Below the pieces are notes generated by a model. It was not told the origin of the DNA, ran no database searches, and worked only from the letters and a program-made list of their open reading frames with translations. From Vulcanimicrobiota bacterium (GTDB taxonomy: Bacteria; Vulcanimicrobiota; Xenobia; Xenobiales; JADMJV01): a DNA stretch of 64,000 nucleotides. Shown here one piece after another: positions 26,432 to 46,683 of the stretch. The position numbers and the translations under genes were made by a program. The stretch lies in NCBI GenBank assembly GCA_050250895.1, contig JBFWNU010000001.1, positions 2,022,210-2,086,209 on the forward strand, in the 5' to 3' direction. Position 1 is the stretch's first letter; each line of letters begins with the position of its first letter.

Positions 26432-27541
26432 TTAAATGGCTCGCAGGCTGGTGTATCCGCAAGCTTCGCAGACGCGGGCCACCACCGGCTTCCAGTGTGA
26501 GCCCACCTTCACCCGCAGCGGCCCCGCCTCGGTCTCGAGGGGACAGTCCTGGAACAGGCGCCCCTGGCTACAGCTGGGACAAGTCGGAACCGCCGCCGCG
26601 GGCCGGGGCAGTTGGTCGAGCAGGTCCTGGCTGCGCGCCTCGAGCCACTCGAGCAGAGAGTCCCAGGCCTGATCGCGCACCAGGCCCGCCTGGGAAAGGT
26701 CTTTGTCTAACCCGGTCGTCCAGACGATCGTCCTGATGCCCGGGGCCACTTCCTCAGACGAGGCAAAGCTGACGCCATCGAGGATGACCGTCAGCGGGGG
26801 ACGCTGACCCGTCTCTTCATAGCTCAAGACGGCGGAATGCAGCTCGCTGGCGGGCAGCTCGTAGCGCCGGCCCTCGGGACAATCCACCAGGCCGATGCGA
26901 AACCGTCCCGGCACGATGGCATAGCCTCGACACGACCCGAGCTGTACGGCCAGGCGGGCCGGCCGGCCGTGGATGGTAAGCTCTTGCACCGGGGCCAAAC
27001 CGCAGCGCTCGGCGATGAGGTTGGACTCGATCAGCTGGCTGGCCGGGGTGTAGAGCCTCTTGAGCATGGGAGCAGCCGTCTTGAGGTGAAAACGAAAGCC
27101 ACCCCGGTCGGGGCAGCTCTCGACTCTGGGAGATTCCGCCGCCTGCAATCGGTGGCCGTGCGATTCCACGGTCAGGCTCAGCGGATCGAGCGCCAGGGCG
27201 CCATTGACGGCGATGGCCAGCTCGTGGAGTTGGCGGCTGGGCTGACTGGAAAACAGACTCCGTAACGCCTCACCCTCAAGGGGGCTGCAATTGCTGAATA
27301 GCTCGAAGTCGTCGGCGTCCTGGCGGACATCGATACTGGTGGCTCCTCCGGCGATTGCCGAAGCGACCAGGTTGAGGGCGAAATGGTGGGGAGTCTCGAG
27401 CTGATATTTGGCCAGCTTGAGCCGCGCTTTGGCCGGGTCGAGGGTGAATTCGCCGCTGGAATCGCGTTCGCCGGCGCCGCGCTCGGCTAATTCCTTTTCT
27501 AGTTCCGACACACGGGCAGGTTCGAGCCACCGTTTGCGCAC
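26432..27541 (-). CDS. paralog family member P1: hypothetical protein with a degenerate GHKL/Hsp90-like N-terminal segment and a C-terminal Cys4 zinc ribbon
   Basis: N-terminus ...GEFTLDPAKARLKLAKYQLETPHHFALNLVASAIAGGATSIDVRQD resembles the MutL/HtpG ELVENAxDAGATxIxV block but lacks the Glu/Asn residues. Zinc ribbon CPSCSQG...CEACGY. Paralogous to genes 36492..37616 and 45580..46683. Confidence 0.5.
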   Translation of the reverse strand: MRKRWLEPARVSELEKELAERGAGERDSSGEFTLDPAKARLKLAKYQLETPHHFALNLVASAIAGGATSIDVRQDADDFELFSNCSPLEGEALRSLFSSQPSRQLHELAIAVNGALALDPLSLTVESHGHRLQAAESPRVESCPDRGGFRFHLKTAAPMLKRLYTPASQLIESNLIAERCGLAPVQELTIHGRPARLAVQLGSCRGYAIVPGRFRIGLVDCPEGRRYELPASELHSAVLSYEETGQRPPLTVILDGVSFASSEEVAPGIRTIVWTTGLDKDLSQAGLVRDQAWDSLLEWLEARSQDLLDQLPRPAAAVPTCPSCSQGRLFQDCPLETEAGPLRVKVGSHWKPVVARVCEACGYTSLRAI

Positions 27542-27581
27542 CCTCTAGGAGACGGCCGGGAGCGTCCAGAAGGGGTGGTCG

Positions 27582-28685
27582 ATGTTTACGCCCGGAGTCG
27601 TCCTGCAAGATCGTTACCGCATCGACAAGCTGCTCGGCGAGGGCGGCATGAGCTATGTTTATCTGGCCCACCATCTGCAGCTCGATCGGCCGGTGGCGCT
27701 CAAGGTCGTCAAGCTGCTCTATGCTGACCCCAACGAGGCTCGCCAGCATGCCGAGCAACTGCAGGTCGAGGCTCGCATCATGGCTCGCCTCGACCACCCC
27801 AACCTGGCCCGAGTATTGGATATGTTCCTCGAGGGCAACATCCCGGTGCTGGTGATGGAGCTGATTACCGGCAGGGATCTCGAGCAGACGGCCATTCTGG
27901 CTCCCAAGCCCATCGCCCAACGGCGGGTGATGGCCTGGGCCCGGCAGCTGCTCGACGTGCTGGAATACCTTCACACCCAGGAGCCGCCGGTGATCGTGCG
28001 GGACCTCAAGCCGAGCAACGTGATGCTGGGTCACGACGGCCGCCTGCGCCTGATCGACTTCGGGTTGGCCAAAATGGCGTCGGGTCAGGGCGGCACCCGG
28101 GCCATCGTGCGGGGCATGGGCTCGGAAGGTTATGCACCGCTCGAGCAGTATGCCAAGGCCAGCACCGACGCGCGCTCGGATTTGTATGCCTTCGGAGCCA
28201 CCCTCTACTTCATGCTGACCGACGAGGTGCCCCCGCCGGCCTCGCTGCGGGTGGCTCACGGGGCGCCCGTCAAAGACCCGCGCATCATCAATGATTCGGT
28301 GACTCAAGACCTGTGGACCGCCATCGAGAAGCTGATGGCCCTCAATCCCGACGAGCGCCCGCCCACAGCCGCCGAGGCGCGCCGCTTGCTCGGCCTTGAC
28401 GAGGGTAAGCCCGACGACGGTCGCCGGCGCTGCGTTCAATGCTCAACCACTCTGACCACGGTCGTTCGGCGGGGGGTCGAGATCGACCGCTGCCCTGAGT
28501 GCGGCGGAGTCTGGCTGGATAAGGGAGAGCTCTCACGGTTGACCGAGACGGGCAAGCCCCAATCGCTGCCTCGACCCGCCGCCCTCGGCCCGGCCCCGAA
28601 GAAGAGGCCGAGGAAGGTCGACAGCGACGAACTCGAGACCAAGAGCCTGTGGCAGTCGCTGCTGGAGTTTCTGGACCTGGACTAA
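27582..28685 (+). CDS. Hanks-type Ser/Thr protein kinase with a C-terminal zf-TFIIB-like zinc ribbon. The catalytic loop reads VRDLKPSN instead of HRD.
   Basis: Kinase motifs GEGGMSYVYLA, ALKVVK, DLKPSN, DFGLAK and EGYAPLEQ are present. C-terminal ribbon CVQCSTTL...EIDRCPECGGVWLDKGEL matches the zf-TFIIB pattern. Confidence 0.85.
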   Translation: MFTPGVVLQDRYRIDKLLGEGGMSYVYLAHHLQLDRPVALKVVKLLYADPNEARQHAEQLQVEARIMARLDHPNLARVLDMFLEGNIPVLVMELITGRDLEQTAILAPKPIAQRRVMAWARQLLDVLEYLHTQEPPVIVRDLKPSNVMLGHDGRLRLIDFGLAKMASGQGGTRAIVRGMGSEGYAPLEQYAKASTDARSDLYAFGATLYFMLTDEVPPPASLRVAHGAPVKDPRIINDSVTQDLWTAIEKLMALNPDERPPTAAEARRLLGLDEGKPDDGRRRCVQCSTTLTTVVRRGVEIDRCPECGGVWLDKGELSRLTETGKPQSLPRPAALGPAPKKRPRKVDSDELETKSLWQSLLEFLDLD

Positions 28686-28700
28686 GGGCCTGACAGGGCC

Positions 28701-29858
28701 CTAAGCGTGGGCGCACTCGAAGAAATGGGCGTAGAGGTAAGGAAAGCCCAATAACTCGGCGGTCGGATGCAGGGGCGAGCCCAGGTGGCGTAGAGCGGCC
28801 ACATGCTGCACCCGATAGCTGTTGTTGTAGATGTAGCGGCTAAAATGTTCCTGCGTCTTGAGGATGTTCAACCCTAACTCGTCGAGATCGGCAAAGAGCT
28901 GGTCGGGCTTTTCGATCAGGCCGGGGAAGGTGGTCAGGAACAGGCGGGTGTCGGGGCCCGGAGCCATCGAGGCCACCGCGCACTCGAGAAAAAAGCGCAT
29001 CCCCTTGGCCGCGTAGGGGGGGTCGGTGGTGACCAGGTCGTAGGCGCCCTTCATCGAGTCGGGCACGCCGTGGCGCAGGTTGTGCTGGAGCACGGTTAGA
29101 CGGTCGCCGCCCTTGGCCTGAAGATAGGCCACCAGGTCCTCGTCGAGTTCGAGCACATCTACCTCGAAATCGCCGCCCTGATGCAGCAAAGCCAGCGAGA
29201 CCAGGTCGTCGTCCCCCAGCACCAGCACCCGAGCGCCCGGTTTGAGGGCAGCGATCATCCGCTCTGCCCGGGATTGGGTGGTGCGCGGGATGCAGAATTG
29301 CTGCTCGTAGCGCAGCTTGAGCGCGGGACGCTCGAACAACTGGCGCAGCAGAGCCAGATCCACGGTCTGGTTGTCGGCTTCCAGGTCGTGGGTCAGAAAG
29401 GCGCGCGTGTGGTCGAACATGAAGTCGACCAGGCGATGGGGCTCGTGCATCAGATGGCCGGCCTGAAGGGGGTTGCCGGTGAAGGGTCTGGGCATCCACC
29501 GTTGCCGAAAGATGTCTTCGGCCCGCCCCAGCAGCTCGAGCAAACCGGCCCGGTCGGTGGTGGTCTCGGGCCGCTTGCCCTCGAGTTTCTCCAGTTCGTT
29601 CTTCAGGCTCGCTTCCAGGCGGAGGATGAAGTCCGGAGGTTGGCGGTCTTCGTCGCCCACCAGCACATGGGCCTGGTGGGACCGCTGCAGCCAGGCGTCG
29701 TCAGGCAGAGCGGCCGGGCTCTGAAAGGGAGCCAGCCGCTCCCATCCCTCGGTGTCCATCAGGATGCGGGTTCCGTAGCTGAGGTTGGTCAGCAAGATCT
29801 CGCGTAGGGTGTTGCCGTAGCGGGCATCCAGGTGCTGGGTGAGCCAAACGTTCGCCAT
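28701..29858 (-). CDS. DUF43 / BpsA-like (N4-bis(aminopropyl)spermidine synthase family) putative aminopropyl- or methyltransferase
   Basis: VLVLGDDDLVSLALL and YDLVTTDPPYA are signatures of the DUF43/BpsA family. Start ATG at 29858 (MANVWLTQHLD...). The ORF-track extension to 29930 is not used. Confidence 0.6.
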   Translation of the reverse strand: MANVWLTQHLDARYGNTLREILLTNLSYGTRILMDTEGWERLAPFQSPAALPDDAWLQRSHQAHVLVGDEDRQPPDFILRLEASLKNELEKLEGKRPETTTDRAGLLELLGRAEDIFRQRWMPRPFTGNPLQAGHLMHEPHRLVDFMFDHTRAFLTHDLEADNQTVDLALLRQLFERPALKLRYEQQFCIPRTTQSRAERMIAALKPGARVLVLGDDDLVSLALLHQGGDFEVDVLELDEDLVAYLQAKGGDRLTVLQHNLRHGVPDSMKGAYDLVTTDPPYAAKGMRFFLECAVASMAPGPDTRLFLTTFPGLIEKPDQLFADLDELGLNILKTQEHFSRYIYNNSYRVQHVAALRHLGSPLHPTAELLGFPYLYAHFFECAHA

Positions 29859-29932
29859 CGCCGCCCATTGCCCGGCCAGTCGGATTCTTCCTGCTCGAAG
29901 GGTTGACCCGGCCACATGACAAAGTCGCATCT

Positions 29933-31603
29933 GTGACTACCGAGACCTCAACCAACCCCATCGATGACATCCAACGGCAACTGTTGACCATTATTGGCGG
30001 GCAGGACCCAGCCGAGGTGAAATTCCTGGTCGAAAGCCAACTGGCCATCGTGGCTCGCGAGCTCGAACAGGTGCCCGAGCGGGCCCAGCGGCGCGGTGAC
30101 GACTTCGTGCAGCAGATCTCCCCCTGCCTCGAGGCTTTGATGGAGCAGCTGAGACGCTATCAGACCTGGCTCAAAGAGCTCGACGAGTCACTCGAAGAGC
30201 ACGACACCGGCGGCATCATGCAGGCCTATGAAGAGAGCCAGGAGCTGGCTCCCGCCCTGGTCGCCGCCCAGGACGAATACGTCAAGTTCTTCGCCGGCCA
30301 CGGCCCCCACCAGAGCCAGTGGTCGAACGCCCTCGAGCAGGCAGCCCAGGCGGTGCGACGCGGCGAGGCCGGGCGCGAGCTGTGGCAAGAGCAAGTGGCC
30401 CACTATCAGCGACTGTTCCGTAAGGCGGGTGAAGAGGCTCAGGCCACCAAAATGCCGGGGCGGGCCATCCTGGCCGAGAATTACATCGCGGCCGTGGCTG
30501 CGCTGGAGACGCTGGCGGGCTCTGACCCTACTCAGGCCGAAGCTCTCGCCGAGCCGTTCAAGGCCCTCGACGAGGCTTCCAATGAGGCCGAGAAGATGAA
30601 CAAGCTGATGGTCGAAGCCAGCGCTTCGCCCACCTCGATTCCGGCCACCAACGTGCTGCTCACGGTGGTGCGGCAGGCGATGGCGGGCGAGCTCGAAATG
30701 CAGATCGCCGAGAGCGTGTTTGATGACTATTGCGAGATTTCCGACTCGTTCTGGGAAGGGTTCGAGCAGTCCATCCAGCGACCCATGGATTCGGCCCTGG
30801 TCCAAGACGAGATCCCGCGCACCATCGAATGTGCCGACGCCCAGTATGTGGCCCTCGAGGCCCTCTCCGAAGCCTTGCCAAAGCGCGACGCCCAGGCCGT
30901 CAACGAGGCGCTGCAGCAGCTCGAACAGGTAGCCATGAAACTCAACGAGTCGCGCGAGGTCTATGCCACCGCCGCTCAGCATCAGAGTCACACCATGTGC
31001 CCAGGTTGCGGTCGAGCCAATCCCCCCGAGAATCGCGTCTGCGAGGCTTGCGGTCAGACCCTGCAACGGATGGAGGAGGGGCTCGGCATCGCCTCGTCCA
31101 CTTTCAGCATGCTGACCGGCCCGGCGCTCGAAGAGAACCAGCAGATGGTCATGACCGAGAACGTGGCCAAGCTTTTCGATGCTTGTGACAACGTGGCCGT
31201 CGGCAAGATCACGCCCGAAGAGTTCGCCGAGGTGTTGACCTGGGCCGCCAAAGGTCTCAAGGAGTATGCCGACGAGATCGAGCAGATCGCCATTGATGTC
31301 TCGGACGAGTCGCAGATGTCCGACGAGATGCGCCAGGTTTGGCGCGAACAGCATCTGCCCTATCTGCACGAGGTCACGGCCTCGTTCGAGCAGGGCGTGG
31401 CCGAAGTCGAAGAGGGCCTGAGTTTTATGGCCAACTACCTCAACGAGCCCGACGACCAGCACCTCATCGACGGCGTGCGCGGAGTGTGGGAGGGGATGGG
31501 CACGATCCACCGGGCCCAGCTTTCGCTCGAGACCTCGGTCAAGACCCTCGACGACCTGCTCGAGGAGGCGGCCGAACAGGGCCTGCTAACGGAGGAGGGT
31601 TAG
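29933..31603 (+). CDS. acidic coiled-coil hypothetical protein with an internal Cys4 zinc ribbon (CPGCGRANPPENRVCEACG)
   Basis: Long open frame from TTG 29903. The GTG at 29933 is preferred as the start, but this is uncertain. Divergent from the DUF43 gene. Confidence 0.5.
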   Translation: MTTETSTNPIDDIQRQLLTIIGGQDPAEVKFLVESQLAIVARELEQVPERAQRRGDDFVQQISPCLEALMEQLRRYQTWLKELDESLEEHDTGGIMQAYEESQELAPALVAAQDEYVKFFAGHGPHQSQWSNALEQAAQAVRRGEAGRELWQEQVAHYQRLFRKAGEEAQATKMPGRAILAENYIAAVAALETLAGSDPTQAEALAEPFKALDEASNEAEKMNKLMVEASASPTSIPATNVLLTVVRQAMAGELEMQIAESVFDDYCEISDSFWEGFEQSIQRPMDSALVQDEIPRTIECADAQYVALEALSEALPKRDAQAVNEALQQLEQVAMKLNESREVYATAAQHQSHTMCPGCGRANPPENRVCEACGQTLQRMEEGLGIASSTFSMLTGPALEENQQMVMTENVAKLFDACDNVAVGKITPEEFAEVLTWAAKGLKEYADEIEQIAIDVSDESQMSDEMRQVWREQHLPYLHEVTASFEQGVAEVEEGLSFMANYLNEPDDQHLIDGVRGVWEGMGTIHRAQLSLETSVKTLDDLLEEAAEQGLLTEEG

Positions 31604-32806
31604 GGCGCGAAAGTGCCCGGTCACATCCTCGGCCTCGAGTTTTTGAAGCTCGAGTTTGGCCAGACCGGCTTTGCCCTGCCGCTTGTAGAGGCGGGCCAGC
31701 ACCGAGCGCATGGCCAGGCTGTTGAGATAAGGAGCGGCCAGACTTAAGCCGCGACGCAGCATGCGGGTGGCCTTCATTGGCTCGCCCAGTTGTTCCAGGG
31801 CCAGGGCCGCAGCCCAGCACAGCCGATAGTCGGGTTGGGTTTCGGCTTGAGCCTGCCGGGCCACATCCAGGGCTTGCTGCGGGCGCTCCAGGCGAGCGGC
31901 CACTTCGGCGCACAGCCCGCCCAGATAGAGCTTTCCATCGGGGGGTAGCCCGGGTCGCTCGAACAGCTCGAGCCAACCCTCCAGGGCTTTTTCGGGCTGG
32001 CCAAGGTAGTGCCGGCACGTGCCGCTTAGATAGGCCGACTCGACCGGGTAGTCCTGGCCCAGGCTTTCGAGGATGGGTAAGGCCTGGTCGTAGCGCTGGA
32101 ACCTGACCAGGGCGGCCGCCTGGTCGATTGGCCCGGCCTCATAACCAGCCACCGAACCTTCCACGAAGGGTTGGGCCAGGCGCCGGTACTCGGTGGGGGT
32201 ATAGCCCCCTAGAACCGAGTAGGCCACCGTGGTCATCAAGGCCTCGAGCCGGCACTCTCGGGCGAACTGTTCGGCCTCTTGCCAGAGCTCGCCGGTGGGG
32301 GTGAGAAAATAGTCGATGTCGAGGTCGAACAGAACGGGCTGATCGGGCCGGGGCAGATTCTCGAAGGTCCCAAGCTCGAAGGGGATGCCCATCACCGTTC
32401 CTTCGACCCGACCGTCGACCAGCTTGAGGTGGTGATATTCGGCCAATTCCAGGTCGAACCAGCCGTTGAGATGGGCGCGAGCCCAGGTCAACAGCGAGCC
32501 TTCCACCAGGGAGGGGGGGATGACCCAGGTCAAGCGGTTGACGATGCCTTCGCGGATGGCCGGGTAGAGGTAGTTTCCGCAGTGCAGCCCGCCCCAGGGC
32601 AGATAGGCGTTGCCGGTCAGGCCCTGGTCGCGCGCCTCGTCCAGGCTCTGGCAGGCGGCCAACCTGGCCAGAGTGGTGTCATCCAGTCCATCGGTACCGA
32701 CATCGAGGTGAGCGTCGACATGATAGCACCAGGCAGCCTTGATCCCGGCCCGCTTCCAGACAAAGTAGGCTTCGCAGTGCTCTTCCATGGCCACCCCGGT
32801 GGTCAC
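31586..32806 (-). CDS. UPF0489-family (arginase/deacetylase-fold-like) domain protein with C-terminal TPR repeats
   Basis: N-terminus ...AAWCYHVDAHLDVGTDGL... resembles UPF0489 (the fHiDaHlD motif). The C-terminal half contains TPR-like helices. Overlaps the GNAT gene by 4 nt. Confidence 0.5.
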   Translation of the reverse strand: MTTGVAMEEHCEAYFVWKRAGIKAAWCYHVDAHLDVGTDGLDDTTLARLAACQSLDEARDQGLTGNAYLPWGGLHCGNYLYPAIREGIVNRLTWVIPPSLVEGSLLTWARAHLNGWFDLELAEYHHLKLVDGRVEGTVMGIPFELGTFENLPRPDQPVLFDLDIDYFLTPTGELWQEAEQFARECRLEALMTTVAYSVLGGYTPTEYRRLAQPFVEGSVAGYEAGPIDQAAALVRFQRYDQALPILESLGQDYPVESAYLSGTCRHYLGQPEKALEGWLELFERPGLPPDGKLYLGGLCAEVAARLERPQQALDVARQAQAETQPDYRLCWAAALALEQLGEPMKATRMLRRGLSLAAPYLNSLAMRSVLARLYKRQGKAGLAKLELQKLEAEDVTGHFRALTLLR

Positions 32807-35707: not shown

Positions 35708-36610
35708 GTGATCGAACTCGAACGCTACGGCCCGGTCGAGGCCTTCCACCACGGGCGCTCGCCCTTCGGATTCTTGAAGCCGGTCATGTCGGTGCGCTGC
35801 TACCAGGTCGACGGTCTTCTGATCGACTCTGGGTTGAGCGTCTTCTCCTCGGCCGTCGGCCGCTGGGCCGTGGATAGGGGGGCGCGTCGCGCCCTCATCA
35901 CCCATCACCACGAGGACCACAGTGGCAACTCCAAAACCCTGCAGGGACACGGGCTCGAGGTGCTGGCCTCGCAACGAACCAACGACTGGGTGGAACGGGG
36001 CTTTTCGATCCGACTTTATCAACAGCTGGTGTGGGCGCCCGCCCCTCCCACCCGGCTGAGCCCGCTACCGCAGGTGGTCGAGACCGACCGCTATCGTTTC
36101 GAAGCTCTGCCCGCCCCCGGGCATTGCGACGATCAGATGGTCTTCTTCGAGGCCGACCAGGGGTGGCTCTTTTCGGGTGATGCCTTTCTGGCTCGCCGCA
36201 TCAAGTATTTTCGGGCCGACGAGGATTTCGCCGCCACCGTCGACTCGTTGCGCCGGTTGACTCGATTGGACTTTGGTGACCTCTTCTGCGCCCACCGTCC
36301 CGTGATGAAGACCGGCCAAGAGGCGCTGGCCGCCAAGCTGCAATTTCTCGAAGACCTCGAAGGCCGGGTGCGCGAGTTACATCAACAGGGCCTCGGTCCG
36401 CGAGCCATCACTCGCCAGCTGCTGGGGCCCGAGTCGTGGCTGTTCTATCTCTTTTCCTGGGGTGATCTATCCAAACTCAACCTGGTGCGCTCTATCCTTT
36501 TTGGACCGACGCTTCGAGCGGACTACCCGCCAGTCGGCGCCACTGCAGGGCGGCCTCTCGGCGAGAGCTACGAAAAAGCAAGCCAAAGTGACCTAGAACC
36601 TGGCCCGTGA
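35708..36610 (+). CDS. metallo-beta-lactamase fold hydrolase
   Basis: HxHxDH motif ITHHHEDHSGN, together with downstream His/Asp ligands (PGHCDD, SGDAF, CAHRPV). GTG start. Its 3' end overlaps the convergent gene by ~119 nt, so one of the two ends may be mis-set. Confidence 0.75.
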   Translation: MIELERYGPVEAFHHGRSPFGFLKPVMSVRCYQVDGLLIDSGLSVFSSAVGRWAVDRGARRALITHHHEDHSGNSKTLQGHGLEVLASQRTNDWVERGFSIRLYQQLVWAPAPPTRLSPLPQVVETDRYRFEALPAPGHCDDQMVFFEADQGWLFSGDAFLARRIKYFRADEDFAATVDSLRRLTRLDFGDLFCAHRPVMKTGQEALAAKLQFLEDLEGRVRELHQQGLGPRAITRQLLGPESWLFYLFSWGDLSKLNLVRSILFGPTLRADYPPVGATAGRPLGESYEKASQSDLEPGP

Positions 36611-37616
36611 GGAGCGCGAACCGGGCCCGCAACTGCTCGACCAGTTCGCCGAAGGCGGCATCTTCTCGCAGCGAGATTTGCGACAGATCGGTGGTCAGGT
36701 GGTCGGCCACCACCACCGCCGAGGCGCCCGGCGGGCCCAGGTCGACGGTCTTGGGCGGGCATAAATAACCGCGCCGGATGACGGTCAGGGTGCCTTTGCC
36801 CTCGAGCTGCAGCGGCAGGCTCAACCAGGCCCAACCACGCTCGGGCCCGACTCGGACCAGGGTGTCCATCGAGTCCAGGCCCAGCTCGCGGTGAACGGTC
36901 AGTTCGGGGTCGTAGCTGAGCCGGGCCCGCGTGGGCGGAGCTTCCAGGCTGCCCGGTTCGATCATCTGGCGACCCAGGCAGAATTGCTGGCTGGGGGTCA
37001 GGGGTTGGTTCACTTGGCGGCCATCGAGTTCGAGAGGAATCGGGCAGTGGACAAAGCCCCTGCTGACCATACGATGCTCGTCGGCCAATCCCGCCTGAGG
37101 GCGAAATCGATGCCAGAAGTCGGCCTTCACCGAGGGACGTCCCAGGTGAATTCGCAGGCCGGGGCGGTCGCGTACCGACAGGCGCATGGGACCGAACCGC
37201 TCGACCAGGCCCGACTCGAGCACCACCAGCCAATAGCGCGGTCCGTCACGAATCGAGCAGGCGGCCAGCGAATAGCCCTGTCCCAGGCTGCTGCGCAGAC
37301 CGATCACCAGGTCGCCGACGGGATCGTTGCCGGCCACCCTCAGGGCGGCCAGCTCCTGGGCCAGTTCCACTCCTTCGGGCAGAACGGCGCCGGGAGCGTC
37401 GATCATCAACTCGCCCGGGCGCAGCCGCAGCGAAAGAGAGTTGGCTCCCAGCCCTACCAGCCCCTGAAGCAGTTTGACGGCCACGAAACCCGGGCCGGGC
37501 AAGCGATACTGGTCGAGCACCTTCTGGGCCCGCTCGGCATCCAGGGCAAAACGCGAGCTGGAATCGACTTCTCCAACGGCCCGAAAGCTCTCTAGAAGCT
37601 CGTGCAGCTCGCTCAT
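36492..37616 (-). CDS. paralog family member P2 (degenerate GHKL-like N-terminus; CPIPLELDGRQ motif)
   Basis: ATG at 37616 (MSELHELLESFRAVGEVDSSSRFALDAERAQKVLDQYRLPGPGFVAVKLLQGLVGLGANSLSLRL...). The N-terminus and the CPIPxxLDGR block are shared with gene 45580..46683, and the N-terminus also with gene 26432..27541. Confidence 0.5.
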   Translation of the reverse strand: MSELHELLESFRAVGEVDSSSRFALDAERAQKVLDQYRLPGPGFVAVKLLQGLVGLGANSLSLRLRPGELMIDAPGAVLPEGVELAQELAALRVAGNDPVGDLVIGLRSSLGQGYSLAACSIRDGPRYWLVVLESGLVERFGPMRLSVRDRPGLRIHLGRPSVKADFWHRFRPQAGLADEHRMVSRGFVHCPIPLELDGRQVNQPLTPSQQFCLGRQMIEPGSLEAPPTRARLSYDPELTVHRELGLDSMDTLVRVGPERGWAWLSLPLQLEGKGTLTVIRRGYLCPPKTVDLGPPGASAVVVADHLTTDLSQISLREDAAFGELVEQLRARFALLTGQVLGHFGLLFRSSRREAALQWRRLAGSPLEASVQKG

Positions 37617-37674
37617 TCGGCCTGCTTCGCTCTGCCAACCAGGGTCTTCCCCCTCGGGGCCGAAAGCCGCGAAC

Positions 37675-39111
37675 ATGACCGAACATGCGCCCGCCGATTC
37701 CCACCCCCAAGAGGGCACCAGCCATGGAGCCTCCTGGCTGCTGCCAGCCATCATCGTGGGGGTTATCCTGGGCGGTCTGGTGGGGGCACAATGGCCTCAA
37801 TTCGCGATTCATTTCGAGTTTTTTGGCGAGCTCTTCCTCAATGCCCTGAAGATGCTAATCGTACCCCTGGTGGCCAGTTCCATGATCGCGGGCATCGCCA
37901 GTCTCGGCGATGTGCGCAAGCTGGGCAAGCCCGGACTGGTGACGGTCCTTCTTTACGCCGCCACCACAGCGCTGGCCGTTTTCATCGGCATGATCTTCGT
38001 CAATCTGCTAAAGCCCGGCGCGGGGGTCCAGGTGGAAGGGTCCAACAGGGCGCCCGCCACGCGCCTGGTCAAACAGATCGAAGGCGAGTGGGTGGTCTTC
38101 GACAAGGGCGATAACCTTTACACCCTCGACGGCGAGCCCGTGCGAGCGGTGGTGGCCCGTTTCAAAGACGAGCACTCGGCCCATGAAGCCGCCAAAGAAG
38201 GCGAGAAGTCGCTCTTCGGCGTGGTCGCCAAGGTGATGCGCATGATGGTCTCGGCCAACATCATCCAGTCGGCCGCCGCCACCGATATCCTGCCCCTGAT
38301 CTTCTTTTCGCTGTTGTTTGGCGGGGTGTTGACCACCCTGGGGCAAAAGGGCCAGATGGTGCTCGAGTTCTTCGCGGGCGTGAGCGAAGCCATGATGGCC
38401 ATGGTCAACCTCATCATGTATGTGGCGCCCCTTGGTATCTTCTCGCTGATTGCCGCTCGGCTGGGTAAAGCCGGCGGCGGTAGCGCCTTCGTCGAAGAGG
38501 TCACCAAGCTGGGCAACTATGCCCTGTGCGTCATCCTGGCCTTGCTCGTGCACTCTATCTTGCTGATCGGGCTCTATGCGCTGCTGGCCCGGCGTAGCCC
38601 GGTGGCCTTTTTGGCTAAGCTGGCCAAAGCTCTGACCACCGCTTTTTCCACCGCTTCTTCCTCGGCCACTTTGCCGCTGACCATGGAATGTTGTGAAGAG
38701 GCAGGAGTGTCGCCGGAAGCCACCAGTTTCGTGCTGCCCCTGGGAGCCACCGTGAATATGAATGGAACCGCTCTCTACGAGTCGGTGGCAGCCATCTTTA
38801 TCGCTCAGGCTTTCGGAATACCCCTGGGCATGGAAGGCCAGTTGATTGTCTTCGTTACGGCGACCCTGGCAGCTATCGGAGCGGCCGGCATTCCCGAGGC
38901 GGGTCTGGTGACGATGTTGATCGTGCTCAACGCCGCCAACCTGCCCACCGCAGGAGTGGGGCTGCTGCTCTCGATCGATTGGTTTCTGGACCGCTGCCGG
39001 ACCTCGGTCAACGTCTGGGGAGACGCGGTGGTGGCGGGCTGTGTCGACGAAATGGTGTTCTCCAAGCTCGACCTATCGGGCGAGATGCACCACGCCTCTA
39101 GCGTACGGTAG
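37675..39111 (+). CDS. dicarboxylate/amino acid:cation symporter (DAACS family; GltP/DctA-like)
   Basis: Polytopic protein with DAACS signatures: ...LKMLIVPLVASSMIAGIASLG..., ...FSTASSSATLPLTMECCEE..., ...NMNGTALYESVAAIFIAQAFG..., ...GIPEAGLVTMLIVL.... ATG start at 37675. Confidence 0.85.
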   Translation: MTEHAPADSHPQEGTSHGASWLLPAIIVGVILGGLVGAQWPQFAIHFEFFGELFLNALKMLIVPLVASSMIAGIASLGDVRKLGKPGLVTVLLYAATTALAVFIGMIFVNLLKPGAGVQVEGSNRAPATRLVKQIEGEWVVFDKGDNLYTLDGEPVRAVVARFKDEHSAHEAAKEGEKSLFGVVAKVMRMMVSANIIQSAAATDILPLIFFSLLFGGVLTTLGQKGQMVLEFFAGVSEAMMAMVNLIMYVAPLGIFSLIAARLGKAGGGSAFVEEVTKLGNYALCVILALLVHSILLIGLYALLARRSPVAFLAKLAKALTTAFSTASSSATLPLTMECCEEAGVSPEATSFVLPLGATVNMNGTALYESVAAIFIAQAFGIPLGMEGQLIVFVTATLAAIGAAGIPEAGLVTMLIVLNAANLPTAGVGLLLSIDWFLDRCRTSVNVWGDAVVAGCVDEMVFSKLDLSGEMHHASSVR

Positions 39112-40759
39112 CCACCGGCACGCCGCCGGTCACCAGACCCCGCAACAGAGGGGGCTGATCGCCCTGGCACAGGTAGGGATAGAATTCGTCCAGGCGGATG
39201 GTGCGGTCACCGTCGAGATCGGCTCCCCCGCCCAGACCACTGACCACTGCATCCAACAGACTCTCGGGAGTCCCGCCGATGGCGGCCCAGCCGGCCTCGG
39301 CCAACTGCTCCAGAAAGGTCGCTTCGGCCTGGCTCGACGGACCCTCGCCGGTATCGAAGATGGCCACCACCTTGCGCCCGTGTAAAGGTCCAAGCCACTC
39401 CAGCAGCTGTTTGACCCCGGCCGTGCCGTCGCTGAGTTCGAGCAATTTGTCCTCGCCGGCCTGGCGGGCTTTGCCCCGGTAGTAGAGCAGCAAAAAGTCG
39501 TGGTCTCCGGCCTGACCCGCCCAGCGCTGTAGCTCAGACTTGAGGGTGGCGGTGGTGCGCCGACTGACCGTGCGCAGATGACCGTCGGGAATGGCTGATC
39601 CGGTCTTGAGGGCGCTCACCAGAGCGGTGCTGTCTTCTCCAATGACGATGGCCCAGCGGTGATCAGGGGCCGGCCGGGCCACCCCGTCGCCGCGCAACAG
39701 CAGTTCTCGTCGGGTGGTCTGGCGGCGGTTGTCGGTGGCTTCGACCTCGATGCGATTCCAGCCCGGAGTGGCATTGACCATCATGTCCAGGCGCAACTGG
39801 CTGGACTGATATCCGGGCGGACTCTTCCACAGCTCTTGGCCATTGAGCGACACCCTGCTCGAGGCCAGACCGGCCGGAGCATACATCTCGCCCGACAGAC
39901 TCAACTCGCGTTCGGACGTGCTGGAGAAATCGAATGGTTCTTCCAGTCGGATGGTGGGCTCGTGCACCTCGTCGAGGTTGACCGTGACCACCCAGTCTTT
40001 GGTGTAGCTGGCGATGATTTTGCCCTGGACGACCTCTGCGCTCTGCATGCGAACCGTCGCTCGGGCCTGGCGAGGGGCTGAGGCTTCGGCTTTGACCAGC
40101 GAGTCGACCCGGGTCAGGCGAACCCGCTCCCAGCTGCCGCGCTTGTCCTGGCGGGCCAGTGACTCGTAGCTGGCCAGGCTGGGGCTGTGGCCACGAATCG
40201 TCCAGCCGCTCTCGCCGCTCTTGAAGAGGTAGACGCGACCATCGTAGCCGACGCCGATCTTCTCGGCAAACCCGTCGGCGTCGAGGTCACGATCGATGGA
40301 GCCGACCAGAGCCGGAGTCGGCGCAGCGAGATCACCGAGCGGCGGGCTCTGCAGGCGCAACTTGAGGTTGCCGTCTTGACTGGCGGTGTCCACGACCCTG
40401 GCCCGCAAGGCCCAGGCCAGCAGGCGATCGTTGGGGTGCCTGCTGTCGATCACAAAGCGCCGGGATTGACCCTGGCCGGGCGTGAGCACGACTCCGAACC
40501 CGGCGCGCGCCTGACCGGCCTCGATCAGGTGCCGATAGCCATCGAGCATGGCCGCCTGGCGCGAACGGTCGACCTGGCGTCGGCCCGGCTGGGGCGCCCA
40601 CCCGTCGACCTCGATGGTCTCCGAGGCCTGGGCGGCCGCGTCGGTCGGCTCGGGAAAAGGGTCGACCTCGGCTTGAGCCGGCTGGAAGAACCCCTGGAGG
40701 AAAAGCATCGTGAACAGGGCCAGCAGGCTTGTCAGGTAAAGTAGGGCGCGTGCTTTCAT
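39098..40759 (-). CDS. secreted protein with a degenerate caspase-like (peptidase C14-like) domain lacking the catalytic His/Cys. It also carries a C-terminal EF-hand-like Ca-binding loop.
   Basis: Signal peptide MKARALLYLTSLLALFTMLFLQGFFQPAQA. ...HRWAIVIGEDS...DFLLLYYRGKARQ...VVAIFDTGEG resembles the caspase blocks ALvIG / lfyYsGHG / ldaChsG but has neither His nor Cys. GGGADLDGDRTIRLDEFYPYL resembles an EF-hand. Confidence 0.45.
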   Translation of the reverse strand: MKARALLYLTSLLALFTMLFLQGFFQPAQAEVDPFPEPTDAAAQASETIEVDGWAPQPGRRQVDRSRQAAMLDGYRHLIEAGQARAGFGVVLTPGQGQSRRFVIDSRHPNDRLLAWALRARVVDTASQDGNLKLRLQSPPLGDLAAPTPALVGSIDRDLDADGFAEKIGVGYDGRVYLFKSGESGWTIRGHSPSLASYESLARQDKRGSWERVRLTRVDSLVKAEASAPRQARATVRMQSAEVVQGKIIASYTKDWVVTVNLDEVHEPTIRLEEPFDFSSTSERELSLSGEMYAPAGLASSRVSLNGQELWKSPPGYQSSQLRLDMMVNATPGWNRIEVEATDNRRQTTRRELLLRGDGVARPAPDHRWAIVIGEDSTALVSALKTGSAIPDGHLRTVSRRTTATLKSELQRWAGQAGDHDFLLLYYRGKARQAGEDKLLELSDGTAGVKQLLEWLGPLHGRKVVAIFDTGEGPSSQAEATFLEQLAEAGWAAIGGTPESLLDAVVSGLGGGADLDGDRTIRLDEFYPYLCQGDQPPLLRGLVTGGVPVATVR

Positions 40760-40822
40760 GTCTAGTGGGATACCCCGGTGGCCGGTAGGAGAAACCAGAA
40801 CGGAGCCTCGAACAGCCCGCCC

Positions 40823-42466
40823 ATGAAGACCTGGCAGGGCGCCACCGCAAGCTTCGTGGCTATGGCGTTGGTTTATCTGGCCAGCCTGGCCCCGGACCTG
40901 GCCACCACCCACGACGGAGGAGAACTCGCCACGGCAGCCGTCAGCCTGGGCATCGCCCACCCCCCCGGCTATCCCCTCTTCACTCTGCTGGGACACCTCT
41001 TCAGTCTGCTGCCGGTGGTCTCGCTGGTGGGGCGGGTGAATCTGTTTTGCGCCCTGGCGGCCGCCCTGGGAGTGACCCTCTTCGGGCTGTGCTTCGCCCG
41101 CCTCGTTGACAATCTGCCGGCCGGCTTGCTGGCGGCCGCGGTGGGCGGTCTGGCGGTGGCGCCCTGGCGCCAGGCGGTGGGTGTGGAAAAATACGCGCTC
41201 CATTTCGTGCTGGCCGGAGCACTCTGCTGCTGGGCGGCTTACCGTCGCCACGGCCAGGCGCCCAATTGGCCGGGAGCCCTGCTTCTGGGTCTGGCCCTGT
41301 GCCACCATCACACCATCTTGCTCTTTGCACCCGCTCTGCTGGCCTATCTATGGGGCACGAAATCGGACGAGCAGCCCTGGTGGCAGACTCCGGCCGCCCT
41401 GGTGGTGGGGTTGCTGCCGCTGCTCTATCTGCCGATCCGAGCCAGCCAGCACCCGCCCCTCAACTGGGGCGACCCCAGTTCGCCCGAGCGGCTGCTCTGG
41501 GTCTTGCTACGCCGGGGCTATGGCACCGGCGTGCTCAGCGCTGGCCATGAGAATGCGAGTTTGGGGTTTCGGCTTGGCTACTACTTTCAGTCGCTGGCTC
41601 TCGAGCAGTTCTCGTGGGGCATCCTGCTGTTGCTGCTGGCTGGTGCCTATCTCAGCTGGCGTGATCGCGAGCGGGGCGGTCTATTGCTAGGCCTGGCCTG
41701 GTTCTTTACCGGGCCTTTCTTTGTGGTGCTGGCGGCCCAACCGCCCGAAGCCGGCTATCTCGATATCCTGGATCGCTTCTACGCTGTATCCTATCTGGTG
41801 GCGGCGGGTTTTCTGGCGCGCCTGCTAGCTGAACTCAAGCCGCCTCAGGCGGTGGGCGTCGGCTTGCTGTTGTGTCTGGTCAACGGCGCCGCCCACTGGT
41901 CCTCGACCAGCCAGGCGGGCAGCTATCACCTGCCCGACACCGTCGCTCTGGTCTGGCAGACCCTCCCCCCCGACGCGCTCTTGATCCCCGCCAGCGACAT
42001 GACCTCGGGCGCCTTTCTCTACGAGCAGGTGGTGCTGGGCCGGCGTCCCGACGTGCAGGTGATTCATGCCGGCCTGCTGACCTCGGACTGGTATCGCCAG
42101 AGCCTGCCCCGCGAATTGCGCAAAGACAGCCTGGCAGAGGTGCTGACGGCTGGCCGGCCGGCCTATTTCGAAGCGGTCCAGCCCGAAATCCCGGGCTTTT
42201 TCGTGCCTCGGGGCCTGGTTTATCAGTATTTGCCAGCGGGCGCCCCCATCCCGGAGCGGCAACCGGTCGACCGCGACACCTTCGAGCGTCTCGAGGCCTT
42301 CCCGCGCCGGGGAGATTGGCGCCGGAAACCGACCACCCCCTACTTGCGAGGCTATCTGATGGAGCGGTGGGCCAACGCCTACCGGACGGTGGCCGAATCG
42401 CTGCCCGAGCCCCAGGCCGAAGTGGCCCGCCAGCGGGCTAGAACCCTTTCTTCAGGCGATTCTTGA
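40823..42466 (+). CDS. DUF2723-family polytopic membrane protein (TMEM260/GT117-like glycosyltransferase fold)
   Basis: YLASLAPDLATTHDGGELATAAVSLGIAHPPGYPLFTLLGHLF is the DUF2723 hallmark. Many TM helices. ATG start at 40823. Divergent from the caspase-like gene. Confidence 0.75.
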   Translation: MKTWQGATASFVAMALVYLASLAPDLATTHDGGELATAAVSLGIAHPPGYPLFTLLGHLFSLLPVVSLVGRVNLFCALAAALGVTLFGLCFARLVDNLPAGLLAAAVGGLAVAPWRQAVGVEKYALHFVLAGALCCWAAYRRHGQAPNWPGALLLGLALCHHHTILLFAPALLAYLWGTKSDEQPWWQTPAALVVGLLPLLYLPIRASQHPPLNWGDPSSPERLLWVLLRRGYGTGVLSAGHENASLGFRLGYYFQSLALEQFSWGILLLLLAGAYLSWRDRERGGLLLGLAWFFTGPFFVVLAAQPPEAGYLDILDRFYAVSYLVAAGFLARLLAELKPPQAVGVGLLLCLVNGAAHWSSTSQAGSYHLPDTVALVWQTLPPDALLIPASDMTSGAFLYEQVVLGRRPDVQVIHAGLLTSDWYRQSLPRELRKDSLAEVLTAGRPAYFEAVQPEIPGFFVPRGLVYQYLPAGAPIPERQPVDRDTFERLEAFPRRGDWRRKPTTPYLRGYLMERWANAYRTVAESLPEPQAEVARQRARTLSSGDS

Positions 42467-43843: not shown

Positions 43844-43859
43844 AAGATAGGTCGCGAGC

Positions 43860-44753
43860 CTAGTAATAGCTACTCAGCCCCCCTTCGCGAAAGTAGCGCA
43901 CGTTGATGAGCGAGATGACCGCCACCACCCCGGCCAACACCAGGGCCACGGCCGCTGAATAGCCCATGTCGAAGTCTTCGAAGGCGCGAGTGTAGATGTA
44001 GTACACCATGGTGAGGGTGCTGTACTCCGGACCGCCGTCGGGTGTCATGATGAAGATCTCGCCGAAGACTTTCAGAGCCGAGATGCAAGAAATGATGGTG
44101 CACAGGGCCACCGTCGGCCGCAACAGGGGTATGGTGATGCGGGTCAGCACTTGCCAGGCGTTGGCCCCGTCGAGTCGGGCCGCTTCTTCGAGTTCTGGCG
44201 AGATCGTCTGCAAGCCGGCTAGATAAAGAATCATATAGTAGCCCAGGCCTTGCCACAGGGTCACGAACATCACCGAGAAAAGCGCGATACCGGGATCGGT
44301 CAACCAGTCGACCCGCTCGAAGCCGAGCCGGGTCAGCAGATAGTTGGCCAGGCCGTCCGAGCGCAGCACCCAGCGCCAGGTGATGCCCACGATGACCACC
44401 GAGGTGATGACCGGGATATAATAGGCGGTGCGAAAGACGTTGCGACCGCGGATGGGCTGGTTGACCAGCACTGCCAGGATGATCGAGGCGAACTGGATGA
44501 TCGGGACGACCGCCAGGTAGAGGATCGAGTTGGCCAGGGCCTTCCAGAAATAGGGGTCAGCCCACAGTCGCATGAAGTTCTTGAGGCCCACGAAGACGGG
44601 GGGCGCCAGATGCCCTTCGGGGGTGTGGCGCAGTAGCGAGAAGTCGAAAAAGGCCAGACCCACACCGCACAGGATGGGATAGAAGGTGAATACGCACAAC
44701 AGCAACAGGGCCGGCGCCAAAAAGGCCAGGGCCACCCACTCTTGCCGCCTCAA
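43860..44753 (-). CDS. sugar ABC transporter permease (MalF/UgpA-like)
   Basis: EAA-loop ...ELEEAARLDGANAWQVLTRITIPLL... with TM helices. Confidence 0.85.
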   Translation of the reverse strand: MRRQEWVALAFLAPALLLLCVFTFYPILCGVGLAFFDFSLLRHTPEGHLAPPVFVGLKNFMRLWADPYFWKALANSILYLAVVPIIQFASIILAVLVNQPIRGRNVFRTAYYIPVITSVVIVGITWRWVLRSDGLANYLLTRLGFERVDWLTDPGIALFSVMFVTLWQGLGYYMILYLAGLQTISPELEEAARLDGANAWQVLTRITIPLLRPTVALCTIISCISALKVFGEIFIMTPDGGPEYSTLTMVYYIYTRAFEDFDMGYSAAVALVLAGVVAVISLINVRYFREGGLSSYY

Positions 44754-45109
44754 TCGCGGTACTCCGTGTATTTCTCCTTGCGGCCTTTGACTCGCTCGAC
44801 GGGATAGCGGCTGTCGAGTTCGGTCAGCTTCTCGTCGAGGGCGCGAGCCAGGTCGACGCCGCTAGCCTCGGCCAGCAGCAACAGCAAGTTGAACACGTCG
44901 GCCAGTTCGGTAGCCAACTCAGGCAGTTCGCCCCGTTTTAGTTTTCCCTCGATCTCGGCCGGAGACTGAAAGCGAAACAGGTCCAGCACTTCGCCAACCT
45001 CTACGGCCAGCACCAGAGCCAGGTCCTTAGGGTTATGAAACTGCTGCCAGTCGCGTGCATCGCGGAAGGCCAACACTTGCGCCTGAAGTTGTTCGAGCGA
45101 GCGCTTCAT
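44750..45109 (-). CDS. MazG-like nucleoside triphosphate pyrophosphohydrolase (small all-alpha NTP-PPase)
   Basis: EVGEVLDLFRF...ELADVFNLLLLLA are EExxE/D-type MazG motifs. Overlaps the downstream permease gene by 4 nt. Confidence 0.65.
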   Translation of the reverse strand: MKRSLEQLQAQVLAFRDARDWQQFHNPKDLALVLAVEVGEVLDLFRFQSPAEIEGKLKRGELPELATELADVFNLLLLLAEASGVDLARALDEKLTELDSRYPVERVKGRKEKYTEYRD

Positions 45110-45238
45110 GGAAAAAAATTCTAGTCGATAGCCCGTCGGCCCTGCCGCGGCGGTGATTCTGGGTGCTCAAAGTCGATAATTGGAGCGTTCATCGTGCTCA
45201 AGGTGGGATCTGTCCGCCCTTTTCTCGAAGTGTCTTCG

Positions 45239-45583
45239 ATGAGGTGTCCCAGGTGTCAGAACCTCACTGACGCGAAGCCTTTGTACTGCAGTTGTGGCTA
45301 CTGCCTCGATCCCGCTCGCCGCCGCCGAATCTGGGCAAATCTGGTGGTGAAACTGACCCTGTGTCTGGTGGTCGGGGGCGCCTATCTGCTGGGGGCGACC
45401 TTCTTCTTTTGGCTGGCTGCCCGCCTGGCCATGGCCGGCTACCCTCTGTTATTGAGCCTACCCGTGATGGTTGTGTTCGGCGGGTTATCTTTGCTGCTTT
45501 TTCGGCGTTTGGTAAAGGGGTGGCTGTCGGCCCGAGAGATCTGGACGAATTCGCTCGAGGAGCTCTCCTGCTCGTGGAACTAG
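45239..45583 (+). CDS. small membrane protein with an N-terminal Cys4 zinc ribbon (MRCPRCQN...CSCGYC) and 2 TM helices
   Basis: ATG at 45239. The ORF track starts at GTG 45194. Confidence 0.4.
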   Translation: MRCPRCQNLTDAKPLYCSCGYCLDPARRRRIWANLVVKLTLCLVVGGAYLLGATFFFWLAARLAMAGYPLLLSLPVMVVFGGLSLLLFRRLVKGWLSAREIWTNSLEELSCSWN

Positions 45584-46683
45584 GCCTCTGGTCTGACGGC
45601 CGCGGGGCAACGCTCTTCGATGGTGCGTAGAGCTCGGGAGCCCAGCCATTGATTGGCCGCGGCCCGGTCCAAACCGGCTCGAACCGTTTGGGCCAATCGC
45701 TCTCTGAGGTGGTGTAAAAGTCGGTCGAAGGCTTCGTCTCGGACCACCTGCATCGAAGTCGCGTCGGTCTTCAGGCCCTCGAGGTCGACGATGGCGGCCG
45801 CTCCCGGATAGCCAAGGTCGGCTCGGTAGCCGTGCAAGAGCACACCATGCCCCACGAACCAGACGATTTGCGGGCCACCAGGAACCTCCGGAGCAGTCAG
45901 CGCCAGCCTGCACAGGCCGGGCTCGGCCTCTCCCCCGCGGCTCACCCATTCCTGGATGAGCTGGCGGCCGCCCTGGTCAAAGGGAGTGCCCTGCGGGTCC
46001 ACCCGAAAACCCCCCGGAGCCTCATACAGTCCGAAGAGGGGGATGGGATGATACGGGGCCCGGCCGGTCGCCAGATTGCGGCCGTCGAGATAGACCGGTA
46101 TAGGACACAGACAGCAGGCGTGGCACAGTTCTCGCGTTTCGTCGGCGGCGTGGCAGCCCCGGGCGAAGACCCGCGCCCAGAAACCGACCTTCGGCTCGGG
46201 GCGGGTCTGCTCTACCAGGACCGCTGAAGGCGAAGAACCCAGCCCGAAGGTCTGGCGCAGCTGGTCGGCTTCCTGGCGGTCTATTCGGCCGTGATGGCTT
46301 TGCTCGTTCCCGAAGGTCAGCCATTCTGAATGCTCGCCCAGAACAGTCCAGCGATAATGTTGATGTTGGCGGGCCATGGTCGCCACGAAGCTCTCGCTGA
46401 GTTCGGTTGTTCGAGTGCTGGCCAGCCGACTGGCGGGCGGCAGTGCCTGGGTGGTGGCAAAGGCCAGGTGGGTGGTGTGGGCCTGGTTTCGAATCTGAAC
46501 CGCCGGTGCCCCCAGCCGCACGGCGGCCTGAACCAGCTTGACCAGCCAATAGAACGGCTGGGCGCGCAGCAGGTCAAGGGTCAGTCGCTGACCTCGCTTG
46601 AGGTCGATGGTGAAGAAGCCTTCTGAGTCGAACTCGCCTTGCTGGCGAAGCTCGGCGAGATGGTGTTCGAGCTGTCCGCTCAT
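45580..46683 (-). CDS. paralog family member P3 (degenerate GHKL-like N-terminus; CPIPVYLDGRN motif)
   Basis: ATG at 46683 (MSGQLEHHLAELRQQGEFDSEGFFTIDLKRGQRLTLDLLRAQPFYWLVKLVQAAVRLGAPAVQIRNQ...). Paralogous to P1 and P2. Its start overlaps the substrate-binding-protein gene stop by 4 nt. Confidence 0.5.
   Translation of the reverse strand: MSGQLEHHLAELRQQGEFDSEGFFTIDLKRGQRLTLDLLRAQPFYWLVKLVQAAVRLGAPAVQIRNQAHTTHLAFATTQALPPASRLASTRTTELSESFVATMARQHQHYRWTVLGEHSEWLTFGNEQSHHGRIDRQEADQLRQTFGLGSSPSAVLVEQTRPEPKVGFWARVFARGCHAADETRELCHACCLCPIPVYLDGRNLATGRAPYHPIPLFGLYEAPGGFRVDPQGTPFDQGGRQLIQEWVSRGGEAEPGLCRLALTAPEVPGGPQIVWFVGHGVLLHGYRADLGYPGAAAIVDLEGLKTDATSMQVVRDEAFDRLLHHLRERLAQTVRAGLDRAAANQWLGSRALRTIEERCPAAVRPEA

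Follow-up and report, generated by a model that had tools for sequence, protein, structure and literature searches.

Three paralogous genes of a Vulcanimicrobiota bacterium and a family of predicted GHL-fold pseudo-ATPases

What are three related genes doing within 20 kb of one bacterial contig, when their products recall the Hsp90 and MutL ATPases and at the same time seem to have lost the residues of the ATPase site? Textbooks present the GHKL/GHL ATPases (Hsp90, MutL, gyrase B, MORC) as molecular clamps driven by nucleotides. The question arises in a stretch of 64,000 nucleotides, hereafter the window, from a Vulcanimicrobiota bacterium (assembly GCA_050250895.1, contig JBFWNU010000001.1, positions 2,022,210 to 2,086,209 of the forward strand), where a preliminary description made from the sequence and its open reading frames (ORFs) had pointed out three copies of a possible pseudo-ATPase family. 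The three genes, called here c1, c2 and c3, are the following, in window coordinates:

26432..27511, minus strand: c1, a putative 359-aa pseudo-GHL protein with a C-terminal Cys4 zinc ribbon, identical to NCBI AB7S38_10720 (P0002) of a Vulcanimicrobiota (Eremiobacterota) metagenome-assembled genome (MAG)
36492..37616, minus strand: c2, a putative 374-aa pseudo-GHL protein whose start matches the gene call of an independent assembly (L023)
45580..46683, minus strand: c3, a putative 367-aa pseudo-GHL protein identical to NCBI AB7S38_10620; its gene closes a TPR / solute-binding-protein / c3 unit

Our reading, which as a whole we hold to be rather probable, is that these genes are ancient paralogs sharing a GHL pseudo-ATPase module with a clamp or scaffold role. 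The alignable N-terminus that had drawn attention to them was significant in every pairwise comparison by composition-adjusted BLASTP: c2 and c3 share 28% identity along 357 columns, essentially their whole length (E 7e-18), c1 aligns with c2 through 64 N-terminal residues (E 7e-8) and 45 residues of a C-terminal helix (E 3e-4), and c1 aligns with c3 in two segments (E 9e-7 and 6e-5). This similarity extends beyond the Ala/Leu-rich helices that had been feared as a source of artefact, and its description as N-terminal, right for the N-terminus, was too narrow, since the homology spans a whole two-domain module of about 340 residues. A hidden Markov model (HMM) built from 66 family sequences recognized c1, c2 and c3 with E values from 8e-63 to 2.5e-80 and found exactly these three copies in the window. 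Each of them stands nearer to proteins encoded in other genomes than to its siblings: c1 to P0003 (65% identity), P0082 (34%) and the N-terminal modules of giant proteins of 1285-1684 aa (~31-34%), and c2 to P0008 (91%) and P0039 (46%), while the best match of c3, with its own database copy P0001 and c2 set aside, reached ~26-28% identity and a close ortholog was not found. Because of these outside affinities, c1, c2 and c3 are, as far as sequences can tell, anciently diverged paralogs and no product of a recent local duplication; the three copies in 20 kb that had seemed unusual are indeed there, but they reflect a paralog-rich family and not a local amplification. In this line, MAG BWSM_10 carries at least seven copies (as counted with a single narrow peptide pattern), and loci L012 and L017 hold a second copy within a few kb. 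Moreover, comparison of c2 with the P0008 gene gave 0.42 synonymous (dS) and 0.053 nonsynonymous (dN) substitutions per site, and the resulting dN/dS of 0.13 indicates that c2 is under purifying selection.

The suggestion of a GHKL/Hsp90-like protein was examined by structure prediction and by profile comparison, and both supported it. The model of c1 (alignment of 40 sequences) had a mean predicted local distance difference test score (pLDDT) of 89.4 and a predicted template modelling score (pTM) of 0.79, and that of c3 (66 sequences) a pLDDT of 79.3 and a pTM of 0.76. Three structure searches with these models all returned GHL ATPases as top matches with ~250-280 aligned residues, including TRAP1 (Foldseek E 1.3e-8), MORC4 (2e-8), MORC2/3, SMCHD1 and type II topoisomerases. 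The predicted architecture, an alpha/beta sandwich of the Bergerat fold followed by a second, transducer-like alpha/beta domain, is that of a GHL-type module, since the aligned lengths cover both domains; in the models, the core of ~340 residues is continued by a long helical hairpin (residues 317-358 of c3). Profile comparison made use of a genuine 'ATP-binding protein' with the HATPase_c_3 and SACS domains, whose gene adjoins that of a family member in locus L003. When the family alignment was compared by hhalign with that single protein the match had a probability of 87.7%, and with an alignment of 25 of its homologs it rose to 96.8% (E 2.3e-10) over 255 columns in both domains. By this sequence evidence, the family of c1-c3 is homologous to the bacterial sacsin/HtpG-like ATP-binding proteins. 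Only fold comparison and profile-profile alignment reveal the kinship to the GHL ATPases: c1-c3 and the 66 members had no Pfam match at E<=1 (HATPase_c, HATPase_c_3, SACS and HSP90 included), NCBIfam gave no match and PADLOC no meaningful match for the 66 members, and the family HMMs found only chance matches among PDB sequences, such as WDR5 and SOSS-C.

Sacsin/HtpG-like proteins (HATPase_c_3, PF13589, plus SACS, PF25794; for instance P0179 of an Eremiobacterota MAG) are thus the closest relatives by sequence. They occur in the same phylum and share with the family the helix '...DPxxFL+ELVQ...GA', a block of strands that ends in nG+xIN, and the second-domain loop, but they keep the Glu, Asn, Asp, DxGxG, GxFGxG and TLTRD Arg residues, all of which the family of c1-c3 lacks. 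The family also has a conserved strap at the N-terminus, and its C-termini are of another kind. Structurally the closest proteins are Hsp90 (TRAP1, HtpG, GRP94) together with MORC, although the c1-c3 proteins, of ~360 aa against ~620 aa for Hsp90, lack the ATP-binding residues, the C-terminal dimerisation domain and any Pfam HSP90 match. The N-terminal domain of MutL scored below Hsp90 and MORC in structure, and the family has neither the C-terminal endonuclease/dimerisation domain of MutL nor its catalytic residues. The GHKL plus S5 modules of MORC and SMCHD1 are active ATPases, and prokaryotic MORC-like proteins occur in restriction-modification and defence contexts (Iyer et al. 2008, PMC2292703), a setting that is not seen around family members. 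The term 'degenerate GHKL' has been applied to GHKL-derived folds without ATP-binding motifs, as in TOPOVIBL/MTOPVIB and Rec102-Rec104 (PMC11347134, PMC11077084), and in the papers found by a literature search it refers mainly to eukaryotic meiotic TopoVIB-like proteins. As in the c1-c3 family, the fold has been kept there and the ATP motifs lost, which offers a precedent for a non-catalytic GHL interaction domain; the meiotic proteins, however, come from eukaryotes, have topoisomerase VI-B as their ancestor and act as obligate Spo11 partners, and the likeness seen here is at the superfamily level.

The loss of the ATPase site can be followed residue by residue. The 25 genuine ATPases have in common an invariant E24, N28, D31, D54xGxG58, G84xFGxG89 and T232-L-T-R235-D, and the hhalign register places their motif I, RELVQNSLDAG, on VKLVQAAVRLG of c3, with Glu changed to Lys, Asn to Ala and Asp to Arg or Ala in the family. 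The preliminary description had guessed this same register when it likened the N-terminus to ELVENAxDAGATxIxV without the catalytic Glu and Asn. Residue counts rest on 163-166 sampled members, those inspected being the best 150 of 4177 matches in databases (see below). At the catalytic Glu position (49 in c3 numbering, used throughout) Lys is present in 149/166 and Glu in 0/166; at the Mg-binding Asn position (53) Ala is found in 138/166 and Asn in 0/166. The three positions of motif I read N/S/A in c1, the most divergent of the copies here, K/G/G in c2 and K/A/R in c3. Motif II of the genuine ATPases (DTGEGMD) falls against non-conserved or gapped family columns and has no counterpart, whereas the ATP lid (GKFGIGF) aligns with 'HLxxGL', where a single Gly is kept (74%). 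Finally, TLTRD aligns with DLS(Q)F, in which D307 (154/163), L (137/163) and S (139/163) are well conserved and the Arg column (310) is occupied by Q in 59, G in 39, E in 28, H in 26 and R in 3 of 163. The DxGxG motif makes the adenine contact, and the basic residue of the second domain in GHL proteins, an Arg in the Hsp90-like ones, reaches the gamma-phosphate. Since five classes of ATPase determinants (Glu, Asn, DxGxG, the Gly-rich lid and the second-domain Arg) are missing across the sample, the sampled members are predicted, as had been cautiously proposed, to be pseudo-ATPases, and all canonical nucleotide-handling residues are gone from them. A further correspondence in the hhalign alignment is that of WCKHxExxIxxnGxxIN of the genuine ATPases with xCxxCPVPxxLDGRxL, that is, the block CPIP(L/V)xLDGR(Q/N) noticed earlier in c2 and c3 and present in both; to judge by the secondary structure of the model, the first domain would end with this block, and c1 has at this place a degenerate APVQELTIHGRP. 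The corresponding positions in the window are:

27341..27376, minus strand: motif I remnant of c1, LNLVASAIAGGA, in which Asn replaces the Glu and Ser replaces the Asn
37443..37478, minus strand: motif I remnant of c2, VKLLQGLVGLGA
46507..46542, minus strand: motif I remnant of c3, VKLVQAAVRLGA, with K49 for the catalytic Glu, A53 for the Mg-binding Asn and R56 for the Asp in the hhalign register
45754..45765, minus strand: 'DATS' of c3, corresponding to the family DLS(Q) loop of the second domain, aligned with the invariant TLTRD of genuine ATPases, Arg lost
37014..37046, minus strand: CPIPLELDGRQ block of c2, residues 191-201, read from the sequence
46075..46107, minus strand: CPIPVYLDGRN block of c3, residues 193-203, probable end of the first domain, placed by hhalign against genuine HATPase_c_3
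46603..46614, minus strand: 'FTID' of the c3 N-terminal strap (family consensus GxxDSSGxFTLD)

What the family keeps is a different set of residues: G16, F24, T25, A31, K34, L35 and L40 in the strap and following helix; K49, Q52, AAV and G58-A59 in the motif I remnant; H94-L95, G98, R161, E182 and R189 in the middle of the first domain; C190, P194, P196 and D200-G201 in the CPIP block; and D279-G280 and D307-L-S-x-F in the second domain. No stretch is better conserved than the strap (residues 17-26), which has F24 in 161/166 and T25 in 134/166, yet its pLDDT is below 50 in the c3 monomer model. GHL dimers exchange their N-terminal straps, and the combination of low pLDDT and conservation is what might be expected of a segment that becomes ordered only in a complex. 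A working definition of the family, into which c1-c3 fall, can be drawn from these features: a strap GxxDSSGxFTLDxxKAxxKL, a helix xLxKLVQAAVxxGA, CP[IV]PxxxDG+, a DG turn and a DLSxF loop, with some consensus residues lacking in c1 (K49, Q52 and CPIP) and in c3 (A31, K34, H94 and the LS of the DLS loop).

The full size of the family was visible only by exhaustive HMM search, given that a word-indexed homolog search had retrieved only 7 and 20 relatives. Against 1.84 billion cluster representatives (50% identity), the HMM matched 4177 clusters at E<=1e-3, 2818 at E<=1e-10 and 255 at E<=1e-30. The source names seen all read 'hypothetical protein', and a literature search found nothing on the family. 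The named sources are mostly Eremiobacterota/Vulcanimicrobiota MAGs, with a few bins that carry other labels (Armatimonadota, Nitrosotenuis, Selenomonadaceae and Burkholderiales), and no homolog was found in collections of 72,556 plasmids and 50,697 phages. Behind the module the architectures diverge. A hydrophobic Gly-rich segment follows it in 81/163 members, including 73/114 of those of 400-520 aa, while short members without this tail (<400 aa; 25/163) include c1, c2 and c3. Six proteins of 875-912 aa (P0032, P0038, P0042, P0072, P0075 and P0103) are tandem double modules, the second mostly without strap, two (P0133 and P0136) carry C-terminal TPR repeats, and six giants of 1285-1684 aa (P0079, P0088, P0118, P0121, P0124 and P0137) have C-terminal extensions of ~1000 residues that are related to each other and lack any Pfam match. 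A search for Rosetta-stone fusions, made with the C-terminal extensions of 17 of the longer members (525-1684 aa) against every ORF of the window, gave no match.

How would such a module work? In the mechanism that we favour it would need no nucleotide cycle but would act mechanically like other GHL modules, dimerising into a clamp or scaffold. Surfaces between protomers or for binding a partner could be provided by the strap (GxxDSSGxFTLD) and by the DLS loop, and the variable C-terminus, be it a hydrophobic tail, the zinc ribbon of c1, TPR repeats or the ~1000-residue extensions, would decide the site of action. That the proteins are nucleotide-independent dimeric clamps or scaffolds is put forward tentatively. 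A more ambitious version, which we find doubtful, would make this the first GHL pseudo-ATPase family recognised in bacteria, composed of paralog-rich, Hsp90/sacsin-derived clamps, tail-anchored or soluble, that might be moved not by ATP but by some other input, such as phosphorylation of the Ser/Thr-rich DSSGxFT strap by the Hanks-type kinases flanking c1, and that could represent a new system of scaffolds or holdases in Eremiobacterota and in uncultured lineages related to them.

Several points weigh against the clamp and the reading around it. Evidence for the fold consists of predictions, though two models and the sequence-profile comparison agree. The tandem double modules, as far as their sequences go, hint at dimerisation in an indirect manner. 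Polar residues that surround the former pocket and are strongly conserved (K49, Q52, H94, R161, E182 and R189) could form a new ligand-binding or catalytic site, and c3, with its lost conserved residues and no close ortholog, may be decaying or functionally different. Moreover, members with a competent active site may sit further out than the best 150 of the 4177 matches. The third of these points leads to the strongest of the alternatives, in which a rebuilt pocket with Lys49, Gln52, His94, Arg161 and Glu182 at its core would take another nucleotide, a metabolite or a phosphorylated group, so that these proteins would not be true pseudo-enzymes. The polar set is 73-93% conserved in the sample, which seems more than a pure scaffold should require, and Lys takes the catalytic Glu position in those 149/166 members; however, all the GHKL elements contacting adenine, Mg and phosphates are missing, and the set is broken in the copies of the window themselves (N49 and A52 in c1, E94 and A189 in c3, and Asp at the His94 position in c2), so we regard a rebuilt pocket as unlikely.

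A decidedly improbable alternative is that of a non-catalytic partner which heterodimerises with a genuine sacsin/HtpG-like GHKL ATPase. Comparable arrangements are known from the inactive or weak subunits of MutL heterodimers and from Rec102/Rec104 with Spo11, the two bacterial families are homologous, and a HATPase_c_3/SACS gene lies near a family member in loci L003 and L025. Such a gene is nevertheless absent from the window and occurs in one genome only among loci L001-L024, neighbours show no enrichment, and the tandem double modules join pseudo to pseudo. We consider it very improbable that the family is a MORC-like or paraMORC-like component of defence or conflict systems, or a DNA clamp of the nucleoid, in spite of MORC2/3, SMCHD1 and type II topoisomerases being among the top structural matches, of the zinc ribbon of c1 and of the multi-copy, fast-evolving character of the family: the 66 members gave no PADLOC match, the plasmid and phage collections hold no homolog, around family members lie ordinary genes of metabolism and transport among which nucleases, methylases or other effectors are not enriched, and about half of the members look tail-anchored in membranes. 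Lastly, a genome of 62-64% G+C with its many long spurious ORFs might suggest a chance or compositional resemblance among three ORFs that are not genes, a notion with negligible probability that we count as refuted by composition-corrected E values down to 7e-18, thousands of homologs, a dN/dS of 0.13, confident models and agreeing independent gene calls.

Returning to the pseudo-ATPase reading, the family, by its predicted fold and sequence, adds to a well-known superfamily a new branch that would be catalytically dead. Thousands of clusters keep the two-domain clamp under purifying selection with the nucleotide-handling residues discarded, and they have no Pfam, NCBIfam or PADLOC entry. If confirmed, they would provide a natural test of how a GHL clamp acts when ATP plays no part, would allow thousands of 'hypothetical proteins' to be defined as a family and would give a lead into the cell biology of Eremiobacterota, so far poorly understood, and the three genes of the window could be annotated as GHL-fold (Hsp90/MORC-like) pseudo-ATPase family proteins. 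This matters to specialists of GHKL proteins and pseudo-enzymes and overturns no expectations.

With regard to genomic surroundings, the three copies do occupy the different contexts first described (a kinase pair, a symporter and an ABC transporter cluster), as the gene map of the window shows. A kinase, ABC transporter or symporter as operon partner was rejected, the neighbours not being conserved across loci. An all-versus-all BLAST of 111 neighbours found one recurrent partner only, an ORF of ~135 aa next to close Eremiobacterota orthologs, and Pfam counts over 54 neighbours showed no enrichment, TPR alone appearing twice; the lack of a conserved neighbour suggests that the module is autonomous. 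The recurrent ORF, of 130-139 aa, follows tail-anchored orthologs of ~440 aa (L001 9319..9729, L003 9352..9744, L006 7324..7731 and L010 7326..7745); its copies are 61-75% identical to each other and without Pfam match, a metG-like tRNA synthetase gene lies nearby in L001, L003 and L006, and no counterpart follows c1, c2 or c3. Genuine HATPase_c_3 plus SACS genes near family members were seen at L003 6169..7566, one gene away, and at L025 441..2000, ~8 kb away, the latter followed by a gene for a 1043-aa protein without Pfam match. As an obligatory neighbour the genuine ATPase was rejected, with none in the 64 kb and one nearby in a single genome of those scanned (L001-L024). The window has a G+C content of 60-67% and many overlapping ORFs; tRNA genes and Rfam families were not found in it.

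The gene c1 had been described as 26432..27541. That ORF exists, on the minus strand, but the likely start is the GTG at 27511 (MSELEK...) and not 27541. Its ending in a Cys4 ribbon proved right, with the two Cys pairs CPSC and CEAC:

26435..26581, minus strand: C-terminal zinc-ribbon segment of c1, with CPSC at residues 311-314 and CEAC at residues 348-351

Both pairs are kept in the 65%-identical ortholog P0003. The segment is modelled as a small beta-rich domain (pLDDT 66-85) and has in Pfam only a weak match to Zn_ribbon_8 (E 0.043). Two genes for Hanks-type Ser/Thr kinases flank c1 (24865..26340, plus strand, and 27582..28685, plus strand), one convergent with it and the other divergent from it. 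The second kinase carries a TFIIB-type zinc ribbon (PF13453, E 1e-14), to which the ribbon of c1 showed no similarity by sequence comparison. Just upstream of the first kinase gene, and overlapping it by 4 nt, 24209..24868 (plus strand) encodes a 219-aa protein with a weak, sub-cutoff match (E 0.006) to the prokaryotic N-terminal methylation motif of type IV pilin-like proteins. Beyond the second kinase gene, 28701..29930 (minus), 29903..31603 (plus) and 31586..32806 (minus) comprise a BpsA_C-like gene beside two large genes without significant Pfam match, one of them with a sub-cutoff, double-zinc-ribbon-like CxxC segment. BpsA_C is the C-terminal domain of branched-chain polyamine synthase.

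The gene c2 lies between a divergent SDF symporter gene and a convergent gene of the metallo-beta-lactamase fold. Its probable ATG is at 37616 (MMAGSSQEAPW...), and upstream of it the frame continues without a stop through another 46 codons (36492..37754, minus strand); this longer version overlaps the divergent symporter ORF in its longest form and is unsupported by the ortholog and by the independent gene call. The 3' ends of c2 and the metallo-beta-lactamase-fold gene overlap by 119 nt (36492..36610), and an overlap of 100 nt (6124..6223) is likewise found in the orthologous locus L027 of the 91%-identical P0008, so it appears conserved. Around P0008 recurs the whole order TMEM260-like / 553-aa protein / SDF symporter / c2 / metallo-beta-lactamase, and most of it, SDF adjacent, in locus L024 of P0039 (46% identical). 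The 553-aa protein (737 aa in its longest ORF reading) has no Pfam match; it and the gene for a TMEM260-like protein O-mannosyltransferase (39098..41311, minus, and 40778..42466, plus) keep their order next to SDF and c2 in both L024 and L027.

As for c3, it departs from the family at the conserved A31, K34, L35, Q39, L40, H94, G98, R189 and L308/S309/F311. The translational coupling to the gene upstream that had been proposed for it is borne out by an overlap of start and stop codons:

46680..46683, minus strand: ATGA overlap, CCGATGAGC, where the TGA of the solute-binding-protein gene overlaps the ATG of c3

On its other side, a 129-aa ORF convergent to c3 (45194..45583, plus strand) overlaps the c3 stop by 4 nt and is called in the independent assembly too; its product carries a CxxC...CxCxxC zinc ribbon at the N-terminus and has hydrophobic segments that probably span the membrane. 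This ORF and a gene for a MazG-like pyrophosphohydrolase (44750..45109, minus strand) sit between the c3/solute-binding-protein gene pair and two ABC permease genes, and the transporter cluster is therefore split.

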